53,334 nt of DNA from the IMG/VR virus record IMGVR_UViG_3300045988_147485, one strand, 5' to 3'. The stretch comes from a virus. Positions 15,231 to 47,334 of the stretch are shown one piece after another. The position numbers were made by a program, and so were the translations under genes. The notes under the pieces are model-generated. The model had not been told where the DNA came from. It did not search any database and saw only the letters and a list, made by a program, of their open reading frames with translations. Position 1 is the first letter of the stretch; every line of letters starts with the position of its first letter.

Positions 15231-15291
15231 CACTGCTGGCAGGAATCGAACCTGCGCCGCTGATCTGCTCTTCCAATTAAGCTACAGCAGT
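15231..15291 (-). tRNA. tRNA-like element lacking an anticodon arm (pseudo-tRNA / mini-tRNA)
   Basis: Minus strand: ACTGCTG TA GCTT-AATTGGAA-GAGC A GATCAGCGGC GCAGG-TTCGATT-CCTGC CAGCAGT G. It has a perfect 7-bp acceptor stem, a canonical D arm (A14, G18G19, A21) and a T arm (TTCGATT). Only about 10 nt sit where the 17-nt anticodon arm and variable loop should be. No CCA is encoded. Confidence 0.5.
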
Positions 15292-16824: not shown

Positions 16825-17253
16825 ATATACACACCTCCTAACTTTTTTTGATAAAATATATTATAAAGCAAAAAAGCCAAGCAAAAGAACAAAACAAAAC
16901 GAAAAGAAAAACACCGCGCCGGCCGTTGGCGTTGCGTTTTTTTGAGTTATAAAAAATCTCTTCCAGACGGTCAACCTGTTCCCGTCTGCCTTTCGTCTTG
17001 CTGGCTCCGGGTATATCCCGGGGCCTTTCCTTTTGCTTGACTTTTCAAATCCGTCAAACTAATCTTTTAATCTATGCCTATAGCATACAGGATTTATTTT
17101 TTTCTGTCAAGTATTATTTAGTAAAGATATATACACCCTTTTAGTAGCCTTAGTTATTTTATTATAATATATTAGATTATAAATCTATTATAACTAACTA
17201 TGATTACTTTAATAAAATATTATATATATATCAGTATCAGATGTATACCTACC

Positions 17254-17290
17254 GTATGCATAGGGTATATATAGGGTATGCATACCCTAT
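17254..17290. repeat. Palindrome/direct-repeat cluster in a very AT-rich intergenic region
   Basis: ATAGGGTATGCATACCCTAT (17271-17290) is a perfect 20-bp palindrome. GTATGCATAGGGTATA precedes it directly (17254-17269). Confidence 0.7.
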
Positions 17291-17510
17291 CAAAAAACAG
17301 CAAAAAAATAGCCAAGGTGTTTAGCCCTGGCTATTGATCTTTTTTAATATAAATCCTGCGCTACATATTCCCCCGCAGGATCTCAGCGCATACATGGTAT
17401 GCGCTCGGCATATCCAGCCACTTGTTAGCCCGCTTGTATGCGGTCAACAAGTCTGGTTCTGCTTTTTCTGGAAAGTCTGCCCGTCATGCCGATAGCCCAG
17501 CCTGCATTAT

Positions 17511-18065
17511 TTAGATTTCAACGATGGCCACTAATCCATCATAGAAATAAGCCTGGTATCTGTCCCCGTCCAACTGTACGGCTATATCGTCCCCGCAGTC
17601 GTAGGAATACACGGCGAGATCATCCCCGCCGATCATGCCGAAGTAACGCATCATAGATGCATTAAACGGCTCCCCTTTCGGGAACACGGCTACTCTGGTG
17701 GTTCCATCCCCTACGCCGTTCGGTACGATCGAGTAAGCCGAAGCGTTCCCGATCTTGACGCCGCCGGCGTCAGATTCTGTTTTGATGCACCGGGCGCCGA
17801 ACATCCCGCGCACTCTGCCCCAGTGACCGGACGGCCGCAGGTTCTGGCTTACATACGCATATGCATATGTTCCGGACATTTCCGGGTCTTCCAGGATCCG
17901 GCTAATAAAATCCTCCGAATCCTTGGCCATGCGCAAGTGATGCATGACCATCTTGTATTGATCCTCCATGAACCTATCGAAGAGGATCTTTCTGGCGGTC
18001 GTGTCCTCCGCCTTGCTCAGTTCATATCTGCCGCTTTTCAGCAGCACCAAATCAGATTTTCTCAT
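17511..18065 (-). CDS. Hypothetical protein (accessory island), driven by mirrored promoter copy A
   Basis: ORF MRKSDLVLLKSGRYEL... with visibly GC-richer codons than the rest of the phage. No family recognised. Confidence 0.5.
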   Translation of the reverse strand: MRKSDLVLLKSGRYELSKAEDTTARKILFDRFMEDQYKMVMHHLRMAKDSEDFISRILEDPEMSGTYAYAYVSQNLRPSGHWGRVRGMFGARCIKTESDAGGVKIGNASAYSIVPNGVGDGTTRVAVFPKGEPFNASMMRYFGMIGGDDLAVYSYDCGDDIAVQLDGDRYQAYFYDGLVAIVEI

Positions 18066-18070
18066 ATTTT

Positions 18071-18149
18071 CCACCATCCGCCCCGTGGGGCGCCTTTCTT
18101 TATTTGATACTTACATTATAGCCCCATTGGGGCTAATTGTCAAGCATTT
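18071..18149. repeat. 79-bp inverted repeat, copy A (promoter/operator/5' leader unit facing left)
   Basis: Exact reverse complement of 18491-18569. Confidence 0.9.
18115..18143 (-). promoter_or_regulatory. Consensus sigma-70-type promoter with internal palindromic operator (copy A)
   Basis: On the minus strand: TTGACA-17 nt-TATAAT. The spacer holds the palindrome TAGCCCCA-A-TGGGGCTA. Confidence 0.7.
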
Positions 18150-18151
18150 TT

Positions 18152-18379
18152 TCAAAAGAATTTAATTTTTTCGTCGTCGGTTGTGACGACCTCCAAAATG
18201 TCTCCCGGCTGGCATCGGCACATAACGCATATACGGTTGATCGCTTCTATACTGACCATGTCGCCAGCCTTTAACTTGGCGCGAGCTTGACCGCTTAAAA
18301 GGTTATTCCTCTGTATCTTTGTTTGGCTGTATCCGTGTTTCTTTAATAAGGTAAGAATATCCTGTTTGTATCTTATCAA
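18152..18379 (-). CDS. Small XRE/HTH_26-like transcriptional regulator
   Basis: ORF runs to 18421, but AAGGAGG precedes the TTG at 18379. C-terminal INRICVMCRCQPGDILEVV matches the Cro/C1-type HTH_26 signature (..C..L.C.PGD.LE.). Confidence 0.6.
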   Translation of the reverse strand: MIRYKQDILTLLKKHGYSQTKIQRNNLLSGQARAKLKAGDMVSIEAINRICVMCRCQPGDILEVVTTDDEKIKFF

Positions 18380-18490
18380 ATAAGCCACCTCCTTATATAT
18401 ATGTTTTGGCTCCTTGTTCAAAAGGATATATATATCCTACCACATACGGGCCGGCAAGTCAAAACAAAGATAGACCATTTTTTTGTTTTG

Positions 18491-18569
18491 AAATGCTTGA
18501 CAATTAGCCCCAATGGGGCTATAATGTAAGTATCAAATAAAGAAAGGCGCCCCACGGGGCGGATGGTGG
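18491..18569. repeat. 79-bp inverted repeat, copy B (promoter/operator/5' leader unit facing right)
   Basis: Exact reverse complement of 18071-18149. Confidence 0.9.
18497..18525 (+). promoter_or_regulatory. Consensus sigma-70-type promoter with internal palindromic operator (copy B)
   Basis: TTGACA (18497-18502)-17 nt-TATAAT (18520-18525). Operator TAGCCCCAATGGGGCTA at 18505-18521. Confidence 0.7.
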
Positions 18570-18574
18570 TTAAA

Positions 18575-18721
18575 ATGAAAAAAGAAGAAAAACAGGCTTT
18601 AATATCCCAGATGGAAGCGGAACTTTCCAAAGTCTGCGGTACATATGAGGACGATTGTTCTAAGTGTCCAAAGCAGGCACTTTGTAACAAATATATAGCG
18701 GTATCGACCGCAGAAGAATAG
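18575..18721 (+). CDS. Small Cys-containing protein (48 aa), not in ORF track
   Basis: ATG right after the repeated leader. MKKEEKQALISQMEAELSKVCGTYEDDCSKCPKQALCNKYIAVSTAEE. Confidence 0.4.
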   Translation: MKKEEKQALISQMEAELSKVCGTYEDDCSKCPKQALCNKYIAVSTAEE

Positions 18722-18735
18722 AGGAGGTGGCCATA

Positions 18736-19185
18736 ATGAAAAAAACGAAAAATAATAATGTCATGACGATCGTGGAAAAAACAAGCAAACAAATAAGGAG
18801 CCACATAATAATATACAGAAATGGTTCCTTTGGCTATCATTTCGCTGAAATGGATACAATAGAACAGCTTGAAAAATTTTCCAAAATGCTAGGTTTTTCA
18901 TATGCATTGGAAGATGTGAGCCATTCAGCGGAACACGGCGAGTATATAGAGTATAGGCTTTCGCACTCAATAGACGACAACAACAGTTTTATGAAACTGT
19001 CAGACATTCCAAACGGTGCAAAGCCTTTTAAGGCCCTTTCAAATGGGTCTATAGTTGACTGTTATTTTTTGAATGACGGCAAAACAATACACATTTATAG
19101 GCCTAACCCAAACGCTAAAAATGTGTATAAGCCGCTTGATACAAAAGATCACATTGATTTTGTAAAAAATAACTATTTGTGCTAA
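18736..19185 (+). CDS. Hypothetical protein (accessory island)
   Basis: AGGAGG 8 nt upstream of the ATG at 18736. 149 aa, no motif recognised. Confidence 0.5.
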   Translation: MKKTKNNNVMTIVEKTSKQIRSHIIIYRNGSFGYHFAEMDTIEQLEKFSKMLGFSYALEDVSHSAEHGEYIEYRLSHSIDDNNSFMKLSDIPNGAKPFKALSNGSIVDCYFLNDGKTIHIYRPNPNAKNVYKPLDTKDHIDFVKNNYLC

Positions 19186-19262
19186 GCCGAAACGCCCGGC
19201 AGGGCGTCAGCCGCGGGATGGTCTCCCGGCTCTGATGATGGCAGACCAGAAAGGGAAAGAAC

Positions 19263-19484
19263 ATGAAAGATACAGGACTGGCCTTTTATTGGGCCGAAAA
19301 AGAGAGCAAAAACGGCGCAGCCGTTAGACTTTTTGAAAGCAATGGGATAAGGTGGGAATATTCCCACCTTGGGGAATTGTTCGCCGATGTTTTCGGAATC
19401 GGCTTACTGTTAAAAGTAGGCTTTGAGCCGATCGGCGGGGACTGGTTCCGGATCCTGTTTGATCCAGAATCAAAAATATATTAG
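19263..19484 (+). CDS. Hypothetical protein (73 aa)
   Basis: ORF with upstream GAAAGGGAAAG purine tract, followed by a terminator. Confidence 0.4.
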   Translation: MKDTGLAFYWAEKESKNGAAVRLFESNGIRWEYSHLGELFADVFGIGLLLKVGFEPIGGDWFRILFDPESKIY

Positions 19485-19510
19485 GGGGGGCGTTTGCCCC
19501 TCTTTTTTTG
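19484..19510 (+). terminator. Rho-independent terminator
   Basis: GGGGC-GTTT-GCCCC then TCTTTTTTT. Confidence 0.65.
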
Positions 19511-19521
19511 TAGCGAAAAAA

Positions 19522-19550
19522 TTGACGGTTTTCGGTTTTTTTGTTATAAT
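19522..19550 (+). promoter_or_regulatory. Near-consensus promoter
   Basis: TTGACG-17 nt-TATAAT, about 115 nt upstream of the 19668 ORF. Confidence 0.6.
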
Positions 19551-19667
19551 TAAAAGAAAAAATTGCATAAAAAACAAAGTTCGCATTTTTTGGAAAAACT
19601 GCGCTTTTTAGTGTACCTTTTTCAAAAATAAGGGGGCTTATTTTTTGGATGCAAAAAAGGATGAAAA

Positions 19668-20171
19668 ATGAACCAAAAAGAAACAAATAAAAAAGCGTTC
19701 TGTGAATTTGTAAAAATTTGTTGTGATGCTTTAGAAATTGGCGAAGTGCCGCCGATTTTCGTAAATTCGGAAAAATTAAAAACTGAAACAATGGCCGCTT
19801 GCTGTGAGTATGACGGCGAACACTGGCGCATATATACCCGGGAGATACCGGACACCGTGCCGGATCCTCTTATCTTTGTCAGCATGGCGCACGATCTGCG
19901 CCAGATCTGGCAACTGGAAACAGACCCGGCGGAATGGTTTGACGGCTACAAGAGCGCCGAAGAGTTTGAAGGCCTTGACGATTTTTTTCAGCAAAAATCC
20001 GAAGTGGACGCTAACGGCTTCGCTATGTTGATGCTAGCCGCCGTCTTTGGTCTCGAGCCGCAGTTTGAGCCGCTGAATGATACGACTTTTCAAATGATTT
20101 ACGCCAGGTTCAAGGAATTGTCCGATGAATATCGCAAAACCGGCACGGAAAATCCAGATTACGAAAAATAA
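19668..20171 (+). CDS. Hypothetical protein (167 aa)
   Basis: AAAGGATGAAAAATG start region. Contains AHDLRQIWQ, a degenerate HExxH-like stretch. No confident family. Confidence 0.45.
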   Translation: MNQKETNKKAFCEFVKICCDALEIGEVPPIFVNSEKLKTETMAACCEYDGEHWRIYTREIPDTVPDPLIFVSMAHDLRQIWQLETDPAEWFDGYKSAEEFEGLDDFFQQKSEVDANGFAMLMLAAVFGLEPQFEPLNDTTFQMIYARFKELSDEYRKTGTENPDYEK

Positions 20172-26251: not shown

Positions 26252-26295
26252 TTAGCACTAACTTACGCCATCGGGGGTGCGTAATGATGTGCTAA
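26252..26295. other. Candidate attP core (nested imperfect dyad next to the serine integrase stop codon)
   Basis: TTAGCAC-TAAC-TTACGC-CATCGGGGGT-GCGTAA-TGAT-GTGCTAA. About 44 bp with two nested inverted repeats, the size and symmetry expected for a serine-integrase att site. Confidence 0.3.
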
Positions 26296-27647
26296 AAATC
26301 CCTCAAAAAAATTTTTACATCATCATTGACAATAACAACCTTATCAATTATAATTCTTAGTATCTTATTTTTTTGAGTTTTGTCGATGTTGTCCCAAACA
26401 TCGGCAATTTTTTTTATGTTGTCATAAACAAAACTCTTGTCCGGCTTATTTGCTTCTTTTTTCTCTTCTTCTGTTAGAGTTTTTTTCATTTCATACACAC
26501 GAGTTTCCTGCTTTTTTATCATATCAATGACTGTATCATTACCTTCTGCATACAATTCGTATAACCTTTTTAGTTTATTGGATTCTTTTTCAACCTGGTT
26601 AGATATAACCTCAACTTTGCTCTTAGGTTTAACAGGTTTATACAAAGAAATGTCCATTGATATTTTTAGAATCTCTTTTTCTACAGCAGACTCTATTTTA
26701 TCAGCAGGATTTGCATATCTGTTTGTACAATTTTTATCAAAATTAGGCAAATAATAAAGCCACTTGTCTCTTGAGCAACAGCATATTACTTTACCATGCT
26801 TATAATGCTTTTGGTAGCGCATTTTGCACCCGCATATTCCACATACGCATAATCCTGTTAAAAGATTTGGTGGATATACGCTTTTTGATCCAGCTGCTCT
26901 TGCACTCCTTATATCTTTCCCGATTTTCCATCTTTCTTTATCAAAAATAGGTTCATGCCTGCCTTGATATATTTTCCCCTTATACGGTATCATGCCAATA
27001 TTAACATAACTTGTTAAATTTTTGTGAATGGTCGGTTCCGCTACTCCTATTGCCTTTGATATTTTACACTCTGATGATCCGGATATATACATTTCAAGGG
27101 CTGTCCTCATTTTTTCGGCTCTTTCCTCGATTGGAACCAATATACCTTTATTTCTGTCATAATTATAGCAATACGGCGGGTTTCCCCCTCCTATCCAGTA
27201 TCCATTTTTTACTCTTTCTAACATACCACCACGCATACGCAATAGCATTGTATTACGATCATATTCTGCTACTGCAGCCATGATATGGGTTTGGAACTTA
27301 TCCTGTGGCGTCTGATATTTTGCAAAATCATGGATGCTTACTACCTCGACATTTTTAGGTGTAAAAATCTTCTCAATCATAAACAAAGAATCAACGCTAT
27401 CCCTTGCTAAACGATCCAGTTTGTAAACCAAAATTTTATCAATGTCGTTAAGATCAGAAATAAGTCTTTGCAACTCAACTCTTTTTGTCATTTCCATGCC
27501 GCTTAATCCGGCATCAATATACCATTCGGAAATAACCATTTCATGTTTTCTGCAATAATCCTCAATATCTCGCTTTTGGCTATCCAACCCAAAGCCTTCC
27601 TCTACCTGTTTGTCAGTTGACACTCTTATATATGCGACGCATTTCAT
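26292..27647 (-). CDS. int: Large serine recombinase (integrase)
   Basis: N-terminal resolvase domain AYIRVSTDKQ...LDSQ, YKLDRLARD, a recombinase domain, a Cys cluster (CVCGICGCKM...CCCS) and a C-terminal coiled coil. 451 aa. Confidence 0.9.
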   Translation of the reverse strand: MKCVAYIRVSTDKQVEEGFGLDSQKRDIEDYCRKHEMVISEWYIDAGLSGMEMTKRVELQRLISDLNDIDKILVYKLDRLARDSVDSLFMIEKIFTPKNVEVVSIHDFAKYQTPQDKFQTHIMAAVAEYDRNTMLLRMRGGMLERVKNGYWIGGGNPPYCYNYDRNKGILVPIEERAEKMRTALEMYISGSSECKISKAIGVAEPTIHKNLTSYVNIGMIPYKGKIYQGRHEPIFDKERWKIGKDIRSARAAGSKSVYPPNLLTGLCVCGICGCKMRYQKHYKHGKVICCCSRDKWLYYLPNFDKNCTNRYANPADKIESAVEKEILKISMDISLYKPVKPKSKVEVISNQVEKESNKLKRLYELYAEGNDTVIDMIKKQETRVYEMKKTLTEEEKKEANKPDKSFVYDNIKKIADVWDNIDKTQKNKILRIIIDKVVIVNDDVKIFLRDF

Positions 27648-36590: not shown

Positions 36591-36854
36591 TTACTCGTCC
36601 TCCTTCCCATCATCAGAAGAACCTCTCAATTTATCAATCAGTTCGTCAAAAAGTTTCAAAATATGATCTTTTGTTTCTTCTGTGATTTCTTTTTCGCTTT
36701 TTCTTGAATCAGAAATCACTTTTTCTAATTCATCATTTCCAATGTTTTCTCGCAGTGCTCTCAACAATGTACAAGTTTCTGCCATGATTACTATCTTAAT
36801 TCCATCTACGCGTACCGTTCCTTTGTCTACATGAATCATAATATTTTCACTCAC
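36591..36854 (-). CDS. Hypothetical acidic protein (87 aa)
   Basis: ORF overlapping the RT stop. Confidence 0.4.
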   Translation of the reverse strand: MSENIMIHVDKGTVRVDGIKIVIMAETCTLLRALRENIGNDELEKVISDSRKSEKEITEETKDHILKLFDELIDKLRGSSDDGKEDE

Positions 36855-37884
36855 TTTCTAATATTTTTTTGCAATACAAATCCATTGTTTTGCATAATTT
36901 GATACAATTCCCATGCATTGCATGGTTTCTCCAAGCATTGTATTTTTCATAAAATTTTTCTTCTTGCATCTTGCCGCTTTTTACAAGTTTTGACCAAGAC
37001 AACAATTTTTTTCGTATTCTTCTTTTGTTGTAACTTTTTATCTTTCGTATATATTTTCCGTCCTCCGTCATGTAGTGATGGAAGCCAAGAAAACTAATAC
37101 CGCATTTGAATGGAATAATCTGCGTTTTGCCATTTAATGATAATCCAAGGCTTTTCACAAATTCTCTTATATATTCAAGGCACCATTTCAAATATTCTTT
37201 GTCATGGTGTATTAAGTAAAAATCGTCCATGTATCTTCCGTAAAGATCAATCCCCAGTTCTCCTTTTACCATCTTGTCCATTCCGTTTAGCATTAGCAAT
37301 GCATATATCTGTGCCGCTTGATTTCCTAACGGCAATCCAGGACTATCGGTGCTATTCACAAGAAGATGGTTCAACCATTTTACATAATCATCTTCAAAAT
37401 GATAATCTAAAATATCAAGAAGAATTTCATGGTCAATTTCGTAAAAGAATTTGTGGATGTCGCATTTTAGAATCCATCCATTTAATTTGTTTGAATTGTA
37501 AAAAGTAGTCATATGTTCTTTCAAACAATCCATACCAAATAAAGTACCTTTTCCTATCTGCCCGGCATAATTTGTCCTTATAAACTCATCTGCTAAAACG
37601 GGATGCAAAATATTGTCACACAAGCAATGTTGAACTACTTTGTCCTTGAAAGAGCAAGACTTAATCACTCTCTCTTTTGGTTCATAAATTTTGAACTCAT
37701 TGTATTTGCTCATTTTATATGTTTGATTCTCTAAACTCTCTTTCAAGATATTTAATCCGTCAAGGCTCATGCTCTTAAATTTCGTACAACTTCCGTTATT
37801 AGTTTTGCCAGATTTAGCACGCCTATATGCCGTATATAGGTTGTCAAAATCACATATGATACTTTTACAATCCAAATTAAACAC
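36847..37884 (-). CDS. DGR reverse transcriptase
   Basis: RT motifs QIGKGT, GLPLGNQAAQIYALLML (DGR-type motif 4) and RYMDDFYLIH (YxDD). It sits directly downstream of the template repeat and avd. The start is GTG 37884 or, more likely, TTG 37875. Confidence 0.85.
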   Translation of the reverse strand: MFNLDCKSIICDFDNLYTAYRRAKSGKTNNGSCTKFKSMSLDGLNILKESLENQTYKMSKYNEFKIYEPKERVIKSCSFKDKVVQHCLCDNILHPVLADEFIRTNYAGQIGKGTLFGMDCLKEHMTTFYNSNKLNGWILKCDIHKFFYEIDHEILLDILDYHFEDDYVKWLNHLLVNSTDSPGLPLGNQAAQIYALLMLNGMDKMVKGELGIDLYGRYMDDFYLIHHDKEYLKWCLEYIREFVKSLGLSLNGKTQIIPFKCGISFLGFHHYMTEDGKYIRKIKSYNKRRIRKKLLSWSKLVKSGKMQEEKFYEKYNAWRNHAMHGNCIKLCKTMDLYCKKILESE

Positions 37885-37973
37885 TCCTTTGTATTTACCC
37901 TTTTCGGGATGGTCATGCGATTTTTTGTATCTTTGTCTGGTTTCGGCTTATTGCCTACTCCGTCTGCCTGTTT

Positions 37974-38050
37974 GATACAGAATGGGCGAACACCATTGTT
38001 GTTGTTGCAGTTATTGTTGTTGATATTGCCGTCCGGCGCAACAACCGCCA
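37974..38050 (-). repeat. DGR template repeat (TR), 77 nt, AAY-rich
   Basis: Noncoding copy of the three VRs. The variable block reads GAC GGC AAT ATC AAC AAC AAT AAC TGC AAC AAC AAC AAT. It starts 25 nt after the avd stop. Confidence 0.85.
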
Positions 38051-38075
38051 AAATTCATCGCATAACCAATATTTT

Positions 38076-38441
38076 TTATCTTTCCTTGTCTTTGGTTCTC
38101 CATGCAATAGCCATGTGTTTTATGTCCGAAACCATCTTTGACCAATATTCCATGCTTTTCACATTGATAATGTTAAGTTTCATAGATAGTTCGATGTAAA
38201 ACAATAAGTTATCACACCTTGTTATTGCTTTTGTCTGTAATTCAGACCTTTCCCTTTTGTATTTACGAATATCTGTCCTGTTTGCTTCTGTAAGATATGC
38301 GTAAATTTCTAATGCACTATTTTGCATCTTATCTACCAACGAAAACCTGTATTTTTTAGGATACCTATTACAATTTGAGGTAATCCTTAATGTATGTTCT
38401 GCCAGTTCCATTGATTTTACGATTACTTTCAAATCTGCCAT
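38076..38441 (-). CDS. avd: DGR accessory variability determinant (Avd, four-helix-bundle protein)
   Basis: 121-aa basic helical protein (ELAEHTLRITSNCNRYPKKYRFSLVDKMQNSALEIYAYL) in the canonical position between target and TR. Confidence 0.75.
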   Translation of the reverse strand: MADLKVIVKSMELAEHTLRITSNCNRYPKKYRFSLVDKMQNSALEIYAYLTEANRTDIRKYKRERSELQTKAITRCDNLLFYIELSMKLNIINVKSMEYWSKMVSDIKHMAIAWRTKDKER

Positions 38442-38454
38442 CTACCATCAGTCC

Positions 38455-39057
38455 TTACGATTCAAAGATTTCAGATTTTAAGATACAAACTGGGCGAACG
38501 CCATACTTGCCGCAGCAGCTAATGCCGTTGATATTGCCGCCCGGCGCAACAACCGCCACGCTACTTTCGTAGCCGTTGCTCTTTGTACTCCATGGCGTGC
38601 AGAGCCACCACCATTCGCCCGTGTTTGGCAAAAGTTTTCTGTATTTTCTATATTCGTCAACCGTCAATAAAGAAATCAACTCCACCGTATCTTCGTACTC
38701 ATCAATTCCATCCAGAGAAATAAGATCTCTTCCAAGTGGCAAAATATTTCCTACCCCGATTTCATCTTTAATCTTTTCCAACAAATCATTGTTGAGGTAT
38801 TCTCTCAATTTACTTTTAGACCAATCATTACTGCGTGAATCAAATTTCATGTCTCCGATACTGCTATTGGCAATACAAAAATATCCATCATTTGTTTTGT
38901 CCAAGATTTTCCATTCGATTGTGGCAAGGTTAAATGTGTCTCCGATTTTTAATCCGGCCGGAAGTAATCTCGATTCTTTTTTGAGGACTTCCATTGCTTT
39001 TGTCAGTTCATTTATCTTGTCCTGCAATGTCTCGATTGCTAAGTTATTTTTACCCAT
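38455..39057 (-). CDS. DGR target protein 1 (C-terminal variable ligand-binding domain)
   Basis: Start MGKNNLAIE after AAAGGAGGAAAA. C-terminus WWWLCTPWS...AVVAPGGNINGISCCGKYGVRPVCIL carries VR1. No signal peptide or TM segment. Confidence 0.8.
   Translation of the reverse strand: MGKNNLAIETLQDKINELTKAMEVLKKESRLLPAGLKIGDTFNLATIEWKILDKTNDGYFCIANSSIGDMKFDSRSNDWSKSKLREYLNNDLLEKIKDEIGVGNILPLGRDLISLDGIDEYEDTVELISLLTVDEYRKYRKLLPNTGEWWWLCTPWSTKSNGYESSVAVVAPGGNINGISCCGKYGVRPVCILKSEIFES
38482..38558 (-). repeat. DGR variable repeat VR1
   Basis: Aligns to the TR over 77 nt. In the variable block, 9 differences are at TR adenines and 2 are not (AAC->AAG, GGT->GGC). Two further non-adenine differences are in the 3' IMH-like end. 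Confidence 0.85.
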
Positions 39058-39058
39058 T

Positions 39059-39661
39059 TTAATTTTCCTCCTTTGATACAAAGATATTAGAGTTTAAGAT
39101 ACAAACCGGGCGAACACCATCGCCGTCGTTGCAGCTATGGCTGCCGATATAGCCGACCGGCGCAACAACCGCCAAACTACTCCATCCACGGTCGGATGTA
39201 CTCCATTGCGTTATTGTCCACCACCAATCGTTAAGTTTGTTGCAAACTAAAAGGTCATTGTATTTTCTCGCCTCATCAAAGGTAATTGGGCGAAAAATTT
39301 CCTCTGTAACTTTTGATTTGTTCTGTCCGTCAACACTTTCCAAAGAAACCTCATGCTTTATGAAATTTTCTTTTCCAATTTTCGCAATCAATGGGTTTTC
39401 AATGTTATTTTCAATAACCTTCTTTAAGTTTGAAGAACAATAATCAGTACTTTCTCCAAATTCAACACTTTCATCTGTTACAAAGCCTTTTGTAATAGCA
39501 AGTGTCCCTCCATTGTACTCATGATCGAGAACAATAAAGTCTTCCTCGCCAGCCACAAAACTGTCTCCCGGATTAAGAGACGATAATAAAACCTTGTTAT
39601 CAGAATTAAGTTCATTGACAATTTCCATTGCCAATTTGTAAATTTTGTCTTTTTTGTCCAT
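39059..39661 (-). CDS. DGR target protein 2
   Basis: Start MDKKDKIYKLA after AAAGGAGGTAAAGGA. C-terminus WWWTITQWS...AVVAPVGYIGSHSCNDGDGVRPVCIL carries VR2. Confidence 0.8.
   Translation of the reverse strand: MDKKDKIYKLAMEIVNELNSDNKVLLSSLNPGDSFVAGEEDFIVLDHEYNGGTLAITKGFVTDESVEFGESTDYCSSNLKKVIENNIENPLIAKIGKENFIKHEVSLESVDGQNKSKVTEEIFRPITFDEARKYNDLLVCNKLNDWWWTITQWSTSDRGWSSLAVVAPVGYIGSHSCNDGDGVRPVCILNSNIFVSKEEN
39098..39174 (-). repeat. DGR variable repeat VR2
   Basis: All 12 differences from the TR upstream of the IMH-like end are at TR adenines. Confidence 0.85.
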
Positions 39662-39674
39662 TCCTTTACCTCCT

Positions 39675-40094
39675 TTAGTTAAATGGCAATTCCGATTCGA
39701 TGTTTTCTGGTATTTCCATAAAATCATCATCATCCTGTTTCTGTGTAGGTTCGGCGTTATTGTTGCCTCCGGCCTGTTTCCGCTCGGCAAACTCGATTTC
39801 ATCTGCCATGATCTGGACGCTGTACACTTTCTCTCCGTTCTTATTTGTGTAGTTGTCGTTCTGAACACGGCCTACCAGAAGCATACGAGAACCCTGTCTG
39901 AAATATTTTTCAACAAATTCTGCCTGTTTACCAAAGGCAGTACAATTAAAAAAATCTACATTAGTTTCTCCCTCACGAGGAAATCTCCTATTTATTGCTA
40001 AACTGAATCTAGCAATAGCCATAGTTTTTTCGCCCTGTGTATAACGGATTTCCGGGTCTCTTGTAAGATTTCCCATCAAAATCACTTTATTCAT
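39675..40094 (-). CDS. ssb: Single-stranded DNA-binding protein
   Basis: MNKVILMGNLTRDPEIRYT...FFNCTAFGKQAEFVEKYFRQGSRMLLVGRVQN OB fold, with the acidic tail ESELPFN. Confidence 0.9.
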   Translation of the reverse strand: MNKVILMGNLTRDPEIRYTQGEKTMAIARFSLAINRRFPREGETNVDFFNCTAFGKQAEFVEKYFRQGSRMLLVGRVQNDNYTNKNGEKVYSVQIMADEIEFAERKQAGGNNNAEPTQKQDDDDFMEIPENIESELPFN

Positions 40095-40110
40095 CTCATT
40101 CTCCTTTCTA

Positions 40111-40827
40111 CTAAAAAGGGCATTCGTATTTCCCTCTTATTTCAATTTTCATTCCTGGATGTGCTATGTATGTATCGCATTCAGAAACTTCCTTTATTTC
40201 AGCCAGTATTCTTTCTTCGTCTGTGCTTTCTTTCCCTAAGTGGCAAAGAATTACTGTTGAAAGAAATTTTGTTTTACTGGACTGAACAAAATTCTTTACT
40301 GTAAAAAGTTCTGCATGGCCCTTTATTTTGTGAATGTTTTTTGAATCCTCTACATTCACAAGATTTTGAATGTAATTACATTCAAGGACCATATGGTCAA
40401 TTTTTCTTTTTGCAAAATTGTACGGGCAATACTCAAAGTCCGTAATGTATAATATTGTTTCATCTTCATGCGAAATCAAGAATCCACAATTTCTCGTGCC
40501 ATCGTGCGGCACTTGAAAAGCAGTAATTTTGAAGCCGCCCAACTTCTCCGCAATCATTACTCTTGCATCTGCACTTATCATTTCCAGTTCTTCATATGGT
40601 TTGAAAACTGGTATACCGCATTTTTCAATCTCTTTTATTGACCGGGAGTGGTCAAAGTGTTTATGTGACACCACACACCCAACAACTTTTTTTATATTCC
40701 AATCAAGCATTTCTTTGATACTTTTAATTGGCATCCCAGCATCAAGAAGAAGTGTCTCTTCTTGACAAGTTATTGCGTATGCATTTCCGCTGCTCCCGGT
40801 TCCGCAACATCTAAAATCCACAATCAT
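40111..40827 (-). CDS. MBL-fold metallo-hydrolase
   Basis: SHKHFDHS (HxHxDH) motif, 238 aa. Confidence 0.7.
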   Translation of the reverse strand: MIVDFRCCGTGSSGNAYAITCQEETLLLDAGMPIKSIKEMLDWNIKKVVGCVVSHKHFDHSRSIKEIEKCGIPVFKPYEELEMISADARVMIAEKLGGFKITAFQVPHDGTRNCGFLISHEDETILYITDFEYCPYNFAKRKIDHMVLECNYIQNLVNVEDSKNIHKIKGHAELFTVKNFVQSSKTKFLSTVILCHLGKESTDEERILAEIKEVSECDTYIAHPGMKIEIRGKYECPF

Positions 40828-40830
40828 TCC

Positions 40831-41400
40831 TTACGATTCAAAGATTTCAGATTTTAAGATACAAACTGGGCGAACACCATTGCTGCTGAGGCAGTTAAGG
40901 TTGCGGATAAAGCCGCCCGGCGCAACAACCGCCACGCTACTTTCGTAGCCGTTGCTCTTTGTACTCCATGGCGTGCAGAGCCACCACCATTCGCCCGTGT
41001 TTGGCAAAAGAGAACGGTATTTTTTGTACTCATCGGCGGTCAAAATCGACACCAGGTCATATGTTCCTCCATAATCTTTAAGGCCATCTAAAGAAGTTAA
41101 ATCTCTTTCGATTATATGTAAGTTTTCCCTTCCGATTTCATCTACAAAAGAATCAGATAAAATATTACTTAATTCACTGTCCCGCCAATTATTGCTTTCT
41201 TCATCAAACTTGTATTTTTCATCCAGAAAATCGGCAATAACCAAGTAACCTCCTTTTACTTTGTCAAGGCAAGTGAATTTAATGCCTCTGAACTCAAACC
41301 TATCACCAATTTCGGGTGGTTTAACAAAATTGATACTCTTGTTGTTTTCGAGTTCCCGTACCTTTTTTTCTAACATTTCAACTCTTTCTTCTAAATGCAT
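40831..41400 (-). CDS. DGR target protein 3 (close paralog of target 1)
   Basis: Start MHLEERVEML after AAAGGAGAAAAAT. C-terminus ...AVVAPGGFIRNLNCLSSNGVRPVCIL carries VR3. The 3' 180 bp are identical to target 1 outside the VR. Confidence 0.8.
   Translation of the reverse strand: MHLEERVEMLEKKVRELENNKSINFVKPPEIGDRFEFRGIKFTCLDKVKGGYLVIADFLDEKYKFDEESNNWRDSELSNILSDSFVDEIGRENLHIIERDLTSLDGLKDYGGTYDLVSILTADEYKKYRSLLPNTGEWWWLCTPWSTKSNGYESSVAVVAPGGFIRNLNCLSSNGVRPVCILKSEIFES
40858..40934 (-). repeat. DGR variable repeat VR3
   Basis: All 11 differences from the TR in the variable block are at TR adenines. Confidence 0.85.
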
Positions 41401-46419: not shown

Positions 46420-46605
46420 TGTGCAGCGCCTCCAATATCTGTCAAAATTTGTCGAACGATTTTTCTTGATTTTATTATTATTTGTTTATAAAATATTTAT
46501 AAATGAGGGAACCGCCAGCCAAAGCCATTCCCTCATCATCCAGAAATTGCCTTGTCGCTCAAGACATTTTGTATTTTAGCAAATAATTTTACACGGAGGA
46601 ATATC

Positions 46606-47334
46606 ATGCAAAGAGAAAAATTGCTGGAAATTCAAGAGAATCTTGTCACCGACAGAGAAAACTTTTTGAGCGCATTTAGACAGAATATGTTTTTGTACCT
46701 GTCACAAAAGGAAATTACAATCAGAGAAATATCAGAATCGTCCGGGGTATCATTCTCGACCCTAAACAATTTCCTTTACGGAAAATCAGACGATATGAAA
46801 TTAAGCACTGTTGTGCCGATAGCAAGGGCATTAAATGTAAGCGTGGATGAATTGATCGGATCTGGAACGATTGATGAGGATTTAGCGTCAATTCTTTCTC
46901 CCTGCCGTTCCCTTTCTCCCAAGGATAAATACTTTATTCGCTGGTATGCGGATTATCTGAAAGAATCAGAAAAGGGATTTACAGAAAAGGAAAAGACTAT
47001 TACCGTTATGAAATTATCGGATAATATGGAACTAACAAACGACTGCAAGAAAATAGAAATATCATCATTAGAAAGCAGGCTTTACAGTACGATATTTTTT
47101 GGTATATCCGTCTCTAAAAGTGACTATATGCCGTTATTTTCTCCTTTTGATACACTGCTGATAGCAAATGACAGGAACCCAAGAATAAGCGAAATATGCG
47201 TTATTAGGGTTCAGAATTTTATACGATTCTACAGAAAGATAGGCTCGTTTTTCTGCTCATTAAAAAACGATAAGCCTGTATTGAAAGATAATGAAATAGA
47301 TGATTTTATAGGCTATGTTGCCTGCATCATTTAA
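46606..47334 (+). CDS. XRE-family HTH protein with extended C-terminal domain (CI-like, long form)
   Basis: Likely start MQREKLLEIQ after GGAGG. HTH ITIREISESSGVSFSTLNNFLYGK. The ~150-aa C-terminal domain could be a degenerate S24/oligomerisation domain. Confidence 0.55.
   Translation: MQREKLLEIQENLVTDRENFLSAFRQNMFLYLSQKEITIREISESSGVSFSTLNNFLYGKSDDMKLSTVVPIARALNVSVDELIGSGTIDEDLASILSPCRSLSPKDKYFIRWYADYLKESEKGFTEKEKTITVMKLSDNMELTNDCKKIEISSLESRLYSTIFFGISVSKSDYMPLFSPFDTLLIANDRNPRISEICVIRVQNFIRFYRKIGSFFCSLKNDKPVLKDNEIDDFIGYVACII

Follow-up and report, generated by a model that had tools for sequence, protein, structure and literature searches.

A candidate repressor-gated cassette with mirror-image outward promoters in a Lachnospiraceae-type temperate phage

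The heteroimmune alleles of phage lambda (imm434, imm21) exchange the repressor and its operators as one block, and invertible switches such as fimS, Hin/Gin and the invertons of gut bacteria are also known. In anti-CRISPR (acr) loci the aca genes are usually located downstream of the acr genes and act as autorepressors, and at the Aca11 and Aca13 loci acr promoters are found on both sides of aca (PMC12282945; Aca repressors also in PMC6765145 and PMC9410906). Among the hammerhead ribozymes tested by Perreault et al. 2011 are one from Clostridium scindens and, in Agrobacterium tumefaciens, three that flank ardA, an anti-restriction gene (PMC3088659). Here we describe a locus of IMG/VR virus record IMGVR_UViG_3300045988_147485, whose whole stretch of 53,334 nt is referred to as the window, in which a gene for a 75-amino-acid (aa) Cro/C1-type helix-turn-helix (HTH) regulator is enclosed by a long perfect inverted repeat with one outward promoter in each arm. 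From the layout and from comparison with related loci, this single HTH_26 protein is probably a repressor that gates both outward promoters through operators in their spacers, the whole forming a self-contained cassette.

The regulator gene (18152-18379, minus strand) begins at a TTG start codon 7 nt after GGAGGTGG, and its product matched the Pfam family HTH_26 (E 5e-8, 33.5 bits against a cut-off of 22); a search against PDB sequences returned nothing at E <= 1. The longest perfect inverted-repeat run was 79 bp, 18071-18149 against the reverse complement of 18491-18569, which agrees with the repeat that a sequence-only reading of this DNA had placed around an XRE-like gene, now assigned to HTH_26. 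With four mismatches the repeat grows to 93 nt at 96% (left arm 18057-18149, right arm 18491-18583, the spacing between them being 341 nt) and extends into the ATG and first codons of both outward genes. A scan of the whole window detected no other inverted repeat that was 40 nt or longer and matched at more than 75%. On the minus strand, the left arm holds a -35 box, putative operator, -10 box, leader, hairpin, Shine-Dalgarno (SD) sequence and the ATG of a 184-aa gene, and the right arm holds the same elements on the plus strand, toward a 48-aa gene.

The promoters P_L (18143-18115, minus strand) and P_R (18497-18525, plus strand) both have the consensus form TTGACA-17-TATAAT that had been read in each arm, with 12 of 12 positions matching, and constitute two of the three such matches in 53 kb. 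The spacer-filling palindrome was recovered as well. It is the 17-bp TAGCCCCAATGGGGCTA, built as TAGCCCCA-A-TGGGGCTA, which occupies spacer positions 3-17 and the first two bases of the -10 box, and it lies at 18119-18135 (O_L) and in identical form at 18505-18521 (O_R); both copies are putative operators of the HTH_26 protein. At up to three mismatches, TAGCCCCAATGGGGCTA gave four strand-matches at the two arm sites against 0.07 expected. A promoter with consensus hexamers at the optimal spacing of 17 bp works without an activator, and a protein bound in the spacer should therefore repress. The regulator has a weaker promoter-like site of its own (TTGACT-17-TAGGAT with TG, 18434-18462, minus strand), whose position is conserved in the relatives.

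In the mechanism that we propose, the 75-aa repressor would be made from this modest promoter, and its dimer would bind the palindrome between the -35 and -10 boxes of both outward promoters. When repressor is lacking, as in a fresh infection or upon lost repression, both promoters would fire at full strength, the left unit expressing the 184-aa gene alone and the right unit expressing the 48-aa and 149-aa genes, a self-cleaving hammerhead and a 73-aa gene. The accumulating repressor would then block RNA polymerase at both promoters, so that the controlled (cargo) genes are expressed as a pulse or kept silent.

To compare the layout we used about 50 related copies, comprising contigs with an identical cargo or regulator protein, 19 IMG/VR loci and 16 genome loci, the last all from Lachnospiraceae or other Clostridia (Lachnospira, Eubacterium, Merdimonas); regulator identity across the IMG/VR and genome loci was 45-69%. 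Nearly all of them share one plan, in which the regulator has its own promoter, a "down" promoter lies about 20 nt past its stop codon and an "up" promoter lies about 90 nt upstream on the opposite strand, the latter two both TTGACA-17-TATAAT-like. The hexamers stay constant while the spacer palindrome varies with the regulator clade. The window clade has the spacer ATTAGCCCCAATGGGGC, the main IMG/VR clade has TTATTCTAAAAGTAGGT and the genome loci have TTATTCTAATTTTAGAG; in L011, L013 and L069 it is CTTGTCTAATATTAGGC or similar. Operators within one locus had a mean identity of 0.83, and operator identity climbed from 0.32 to 0.79 as regulator identity increased; the window-clade operator had a mean identity of 0.33 with all others.

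The strongest evidence for the repressor-operator reading, as far as sequence comparison can provide it, comes from a naturally occurring exchange of alleles. Instead of the block from one -10 box to the other, L008 and L063-L068 have a gene for a 67-aa ribbon-helix-helix (RHH)-like protein, and this allele accounts for six of the ten places with an identical 48-aa gene, including contigs of 114 kb and 226 kb. Identity with the window resumes at 18120 and 18520, the shared flanks are 96-99% identical, and cargo and leaders are the same as in the window. Both outward spacers have become AACCATATTGAGCAAGA, with a third copy in the promoter of the new regulator itself, and in L066 the same two derived changes are present in both outward spacers. 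The layout, the co-variation and the swap are thus consistent with the suggestion of the sequence-only reading that one repressor gates two identical strong promoters. A reading of the second palindrome, in the leader, as another operator of the same protein did not hold.

Each outward transcript has a 43-nt leader made up of the purine tract AAAGAAAGG, a 5-bp GC stem-loop and the SD. The GC palindrome and the pre-start sequence that had been read in the arms are present in both, CGCCCCACGGGGCG at 18548-18561 (plus strand) and 18092-18079 (minus strand) and the SD-like GGATGGTGG at 18561-18569 (plus strand, before the 48-aa gene) and 18079-18071 (minus strand, before the 184-aa gene), 5 nt before each ATG. 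The P_L stem-loop is CGCCC-CACG-GGGCG. The succession of AAAGAAAGG, hairpin, (A)AGGTG, 5 to 8 nt and ATG recurs with all regulator types, sometimes before internal genes, and at least 12 different stem sequences occupy the same leader position. In an alignment of 15 leaders the 5-bp stem was 92% paired, against 70.5% after shuffling (0 of 500 as high) and 23-44% with the partner slid, and changes on both sides were seen in three of the five stem pairs. By this measure of aligned sequences the predicted hairpin is conserved by covariation; its folding energy is about -10 kcal/mol, with both purine tracts remaining single-stranded. No Rfam family matched the leader, also at a relaxed threshold.

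The leader palindrome as a second operator was rejected in general because the same stem-loop accompanies three different, unrelated regulator types. By analogy with described leaders, the leader as a whole most likely stabilises the mRNA and/or enhances translation. The two purine tracts together spell in full the complement of the Firmicute 16S 3' end, which suggests that they form a split SD. In a scan read inward, 18079-18092 (plus strand) and 18561-18548 (minus strand) were flagged as terminator-like, with a 5-bp stem and an interrupted tail CCTTTCTTTA; the inward-read hairpin with the T-rich CCTTTCTTTATTT scores as a weak terminator and may insulate the cassette from incoming transcription. 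No terminator was found between the regulator stop codon and P_L. The spacer palindrome was considered as a terminator of the regulator transcript and discarded, as no U run follows it and the AT-rich operators of other clades cannot form stable hairpins. In the window clade, the operator core GCCCC-AAT-GGGGC (18507-18519) resembles the leader hairpin GCCCC-AC-GGGGC (18549-18560) about 30 nt downstream, and the mirror copies do likewise; other clades have no such resemblance.

The same operator-bearing promoter (TTGACATATAGCCCCATTGGGGCTATAAT) was observed in an unrelated context at L045 442-470 (JGI Ga0105053_10190615), with a resolvase gene ahead of it and a RelE/HigB-like and HTH-antitoxin-like pair behind it; a palindromic operator may have arisen there by convergence, or the two loci may be distantly linked. 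In viral_contigs the exact 29-nt promoter had no match, and its degenerate form gave none in genome_contigs and one unrelated locus in metagenome_contigs. As these scans were nearly empty, the window-clade operator is rare in those collections.

The palindrome could instead be bound by another factor, namely a 260-aa CI-like regulator encoded elsewhere in the window or a host protein, in which case the local HTH protein would have another target or another role, such as that of an activator or anti-repressor partner. The CI-like protein also has an HTH_26/HTH_3 domain, the local regulator's own promoter has no palindrome, and the operator-promoter of L045 stands in an unrelated setting. We regard this alternative as unlikely, because the operators change with the local regulator, the RHH-like swap altering three promoters while the shared flanks remain nearly identical, and no copy of TAGCCCCAATGGGGCTA at up to three mismatches was present elsewhere in the window, including beside the CI-like gene, where CI-like operators would be expected.

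A number of points weigh against the repressor reading itself. Binding, repression, timing and leader function are inferred from sequence. Repressors of this sort usually regulate themselves, but the promoter of the HTH gene has no operator copy and thus gives no sign of autoregulation. Shared descent alone predicts part of the correlation between operators and regulators, yet the natural swap is not explained so; the RHH assignment of the 67-aa protein in turn lies below Pfam thresholds (E 0.002, weak Arc/RHH similarity). The identical operator-promoter in the toxin-antitoxin-like setting of L045 means that the sequence is not exclusive to this regulator family, and in the window clade the operator is like the leader hairpin. 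The hairpin is unexceptional on folding energy alone (z = -0.4 to -0.9). Finally, no cultured phage with the module was found, phage Mushu being without it and a tblastn search with the regulator giving four weak matches.

The inverted repeat itself does not stem from assembly. Apart from the window's own contig, seven independent ones (L001, L003, L016, L019, L020, L023 and others) had identical arms; they come from different samples and assemblers, and an assembly artefact was ruled out on these grounds. Identity of the arms is not obligatory. L006, L022 and L021 each have one substitution confined to a single arm (at spacer position 2, the palindrome centre and the -35 box), the half-sites being spared in all three, and in L017 the divergence is at the hairpin. 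Among distant clades, likeness between the two sides is limited to the promoter of about 29 bp and is imperfect, so that the long repeat is not conserved there; TATATT and an additional hairpin, about 45 nt long, are found on the "up" side. In the lineage of the window the same leader type is found on both sides under either regulator allele, with about 56 identical nt in the RHH loci. The mirror symmetry would accordingly have two sources, a promoter/operator that travels with the regulator and a shared leader type that travels with the cargo. As unconstrained positions are identical too, recent duplication or gene conversion is indicated.

Such a repeat may also call to mind an invertible or phase-variable switch, in which recombination between the 79-bp arms flips the 341-bp regulator segment and alters expression, and the sequence-only reading had pointed out that the regulator gene could be inverted in this way. 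The repeat is formally a substrate for homologous recombination, the phage encodes RecT and a serine recombinase elsewhere, and deletion alleles show that the repeat is recombinogenic in that sense. In every assembly, however, the regulator was co-oriented with the 184-aa gene (5, 10 and 7 loci of three sets), and at the assembly level one orientation was seen in about 20 independent contigs of the lineage and in all of the about 35 more distant loci. The repeat is longer than the apparent assembly k of 55, so unresolved orientations should have split about evenly, which they did not. No invertase adjoins the locus, the one recombinase being an integrase-type protein of 451 aa at a distance of 8 kb, and the arms of distant clades are too short and imperfect in their likeness, as described above. 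Moreover, the promoters sit in the repeats, outside the flipping segment, and inversion would leave both promoter-cargo links unchanged. We therefore consider an invertible switch very improbable, and the rearrangements that were found are deletions.

In two of these deletion alleles, L005 and L010, everything between the two leader hairpins is gone, and the junction at a CGCCCC microhomology leaves CCACCATCCGCCCCACGGGGCGGATGGTGG. Both promoters and the regulator are thus missing at L005 5960-5995 and L010 680-715, where a perfect 14+2+14 palindrome stands between divergent start codons. L004 lacks 41 bp between two GGGGC repeats, and microhomologies at the SD and start codon mark the loss of the 48-aa gene from L022 and L025. 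From these alleles it follows that module and cargo are dispensable and fluid.

Long terminal inverted repeats around a small gene, alleles without the whole block (L005, L010) and a position about 1.3 kb upstream of the packaging genes might also suggest a small mobile element of MITE or IS type with promoter-like terminal repeats, or a cruciform, origin or pac site. There is, however, a single copy per genome, no transposase between the arms and no target-site duplication or flanking direct repeat. The repeat ends coincide with start codons, the swap boundaries fall at the -10 boxes and not at the repeat ends, and the deletion junction lies inside the arms, with 14 bp of each remaining. Promoter, operator, leader and SD account for the arms completely, and relatives conserve each of these elements separately. 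Readings of this kind are extremely unlikely in our assessment, and mobile element, attP and pac site were rejected on copy number, boundaries and distance from the integrase. In one contig, L007 (3480-3660), bacterial genes (for a histidine kinase, a response regulator and a CitMHS transporter) adjoin an arm with the 184-aa gene, the junction lying about 14 nt past the arm's inner end, and the other flank is phage; this contig of 4.5 kb and 4x coverage could be a chimera or a remnant.

With the repressor-operator reading retained, the units under its putative control can be described. P_L leads into the 184-aa gene (MRKSD..., 17511-18065, minus strand), and this unit would end at a terminator-like hairpin with an 11-bp stem and T run (17307-17335, minus strand). 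On the plus strand, P_R is followed by the 48-aa gene with four Cys (18575-18721; deleted in L022 and L025), the 149-aa gene (18736-19185), a type II hammerhead ribozyme (19185-19250) and the 73-aa gene (19263-19484), after which a terminator-like hairpin with a 9-bp stem and T run (19483-19504) would end the unit. A TG-extended promoter-like site TTGACG-17-TATAAT (19522-19550, plus strand) precedes the 167-aa gene (19668-20171, plus strand), which is split into 120 and 42 aa in several alleles and which is probably, judged by these signals, a transcription unit of its own. The outward direction of both promoters, into the 184-aa gene and the plus-strand genes, therefore stands as first read, but the four-gene operon does not, being replaced by three genes with a hammerhead, a terminator-like site and then a separate promoter-like site.

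The hammerhead matched Rfam RF02276 over its full length (1-66) with 62 bits against a threshold of 37 and carries the CUGAUGA and GAAA core boxes; it is predicted to self-cleave. Of 20 related loci, 12 have a hammerhead close to the regulator, in each case on the "up" strand; relatives that bear it are L011, L013, L017, L021, L026, L027, L031, L037, L049 and L061. Its sequence is 100% conserved in L013 despite a different upstream gene. In a blastn search against deposited phages the hammerhead alone matched. Clostridium scindens, the source of one tested hammerhead, is itself a member of Lachnospiraceae.

Homology and structure searches for the controlled genes, which the sequence-only reading had proposed, yielded homologues and confident models but no annotated or PDB neighbours. 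The 184-aa protein belongs to an ORFan family with 268 representatives without annotation, of which a few are fused to an N-terminal HTH_3 domain. Its AlphaFold2 model (pLDDT 97.8) has a helical N-terminal part and a beta-rich C-terminal part; Foldseek gave no PDB neighbour (best E 0.33), and BFVD gave one uncharacterised gut-phage match. The 149-aa protein has about 200 unnamed homologues and an AlphaFold2 model with pLDDT 95.5, again with no PDB neighbour. For the cargo as a whole, no annotated match was obtained in Pfam, PHROGs, PADLOC, a PDB sequence search or Foldseek against PDB and BFVD. Over 40 loci, 193 cargo open reading frames fell into 107 clusters with a median of 88 aa, and by these sequence clusters the cargo genes are hypervariable ORFans. 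A few cargo pairs look toxin-antitoxin-like, as judged by eye, and one cargo protein at another locus has a Uma2 nuclease domain. This domain and the HTH_3 fusions are the sole hints at a cargo function.

The ends of the window overlap by 55 bp, and it is therefore a complete circular assembly of about 53.28 kb. Its G+C content is 38%, and transcription is almost wholly on the minus strand. The phage is a temperate-type tailed phage of Lachnospiraceae type, in which packaging genes (terminase large subunit and portal), a large serine integrase of 451 aa with Resolvase and Zn_ribbon_recom domains (26292-27647) and the 260-aa CI-like regulator (46552-47334, plus strand) were identified, together with two Ant-like proteins, RecT, SbcC-like and DnaD-like proteins, an endolysin, a tail fibre and a reverse transcriptase. 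The cassette lies at the edge of the only sizeable plus-strand island (18575-20171), upstream of the packaging genes. The CI-like gene near 46.5 kb is the likelier lysogeny switch, and the cassette would be a separate, second regulatory unit. The flanking ORFans end at terminator-like sites and the replication, recombination and CI-like genes are located elsewhere, an arrangement which does not fit a region of early lytic control or superinfection immunity.

Several other features of the genome were observed. The third 12-of-12 consensus promoter lies antisense within the integrase gene (26326-26354, plus strand). The stretch 17240-17300, which separates the 184-aa unit from the promoter that follows in the direction of the packaging genes, is AT-rich with nested palindromes (GGGTATGCATACCC, repeated) and may be a packaging or replication signal. 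A tRNA-like element at 15231-15291 (minus strand) scored 46 bits in Rfam, with an anticodon arm of only about 6 nt, and ARAGORN called no tRNA; it is kept in L011 and L013, and in some relatives the corresponding position is taken by a tRNA of full length that has a long extra arm. The region 36847-41107 (minus strand) resembles a diversity-generating retroelement, with a reverse transcriptase (36847-37884), an AAC-rich template repeat (37951-38057) and three variable repeats (38459-38565, 39075-39181, 40835-40941) that are apparently near the 3' ends of three genes. These repeats show about 34 differences per pair, of which 18-20 are at template adenines. In a prophage of Lachnospira intestinalis (L046 7331-8049), a ROOL RNA (358 bits) and a tRNA were found a few kb downstream of the homologous module.

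The cassette defined here is compact and recurs in gut Lachnospiraceae phages and prophages. One repressor serving two outward promoters is a textbook principle, so concepts are unchanged and a familiar design is found in a new example. We offer tentatively, as a possibility that is at present doubtful, that it represents a previously unrecognised, hypervariable accessory-gene hotspot of Lachnospiraceae phages, with a repressor-gated immediate-early pulse of counter-defence or host-takeover proteins, at least two orthogonal alleles and an undescribed split-SD leader element. The early counter-defence or host-takeover pulse is a reasonable guess by analogy with the Aca loci (PMC12282945) and the hammerhead-flanked ardA (PMC3088659). 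If it is true, the regulator and promoters would give a guilt-by-association handle for new anti-defence genes in phages of gut Firmicutes. The two naturally orthogonal, putative repressor/operator pairs on perfect-consensus promoters could be used as parts for the genetics of Clostridia, where tools are scarce. The locus marks very fast turnover of cargo, two models of which are confident without a PDB neighbour, and it places both a type II hammerhead and a leader hairpin with covariation in a defined transcription unit, which makes their roles testable. It also cautions that a long perfect inverted repeat around a gene need not signify an invertible switch.

Among the known systems, the immunity region of lambda resembles the cassette in having a repressor gene between two outward promoters with promoter-overlapping operators, and the replacement of HTH by RHH from -10 to -10 box is the same kind of exchange as in the lambda heteroimmune alleles. 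It differs in that each promoter here has one palindrome, whereas lambda has three operators, that the 75-aa regulator consists of the DNA-binding domain alone and lacks a C-terminal domain for cleavage or oligomerisation, and that small variable ORFans are controlled instead of early lytic genes. Invertible switches likewise have inverted repeats around a short regulatory segment, but here the repeats are the promoters, outside the segment that would flip, with no adjacent invertase and one orientation. The leader is similar to the 5'-UTR stabilisers of Firmicutes known as STAB-SD (Agaisse and Lereclus 1996, as cited in PMC7509114) in its SD-like purine tract AAAGAAAGG well upstream of the real SD, and to Firmicutes 5' stem-loops in its stable stem-loop near the mRNA 5' end beside a purine tract; unlike in STAB-SD, these elements stand in a fixed order that is peculiar to these phages, with the tract first, then hairpin and SD, and the ATG 5-8 nt further on. 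As with the prophage hammerheads of PMC3088659, a type II hammerhead is located between cargo genes of a prophage transcript, while its recurrence in one specific operon of a regulator cassette is an association not described there. A 2026 survey of Aca proteins makes no mention of HTH_26 or Lachnospiraceae. Aca-controlled anti-CRISPR loci share with this cassette a small HTH protein, inverted-repeat operators inside strong promoters, small and fast-evolving accessory genes of prophages and regulation both upstream and downstream of the regulator gene. In contrast to aca, the regulator has its own promoter, and in contrast to the acr loci, the cargo matches no known family and some loci hold toxin-antitoxin-like pairs.

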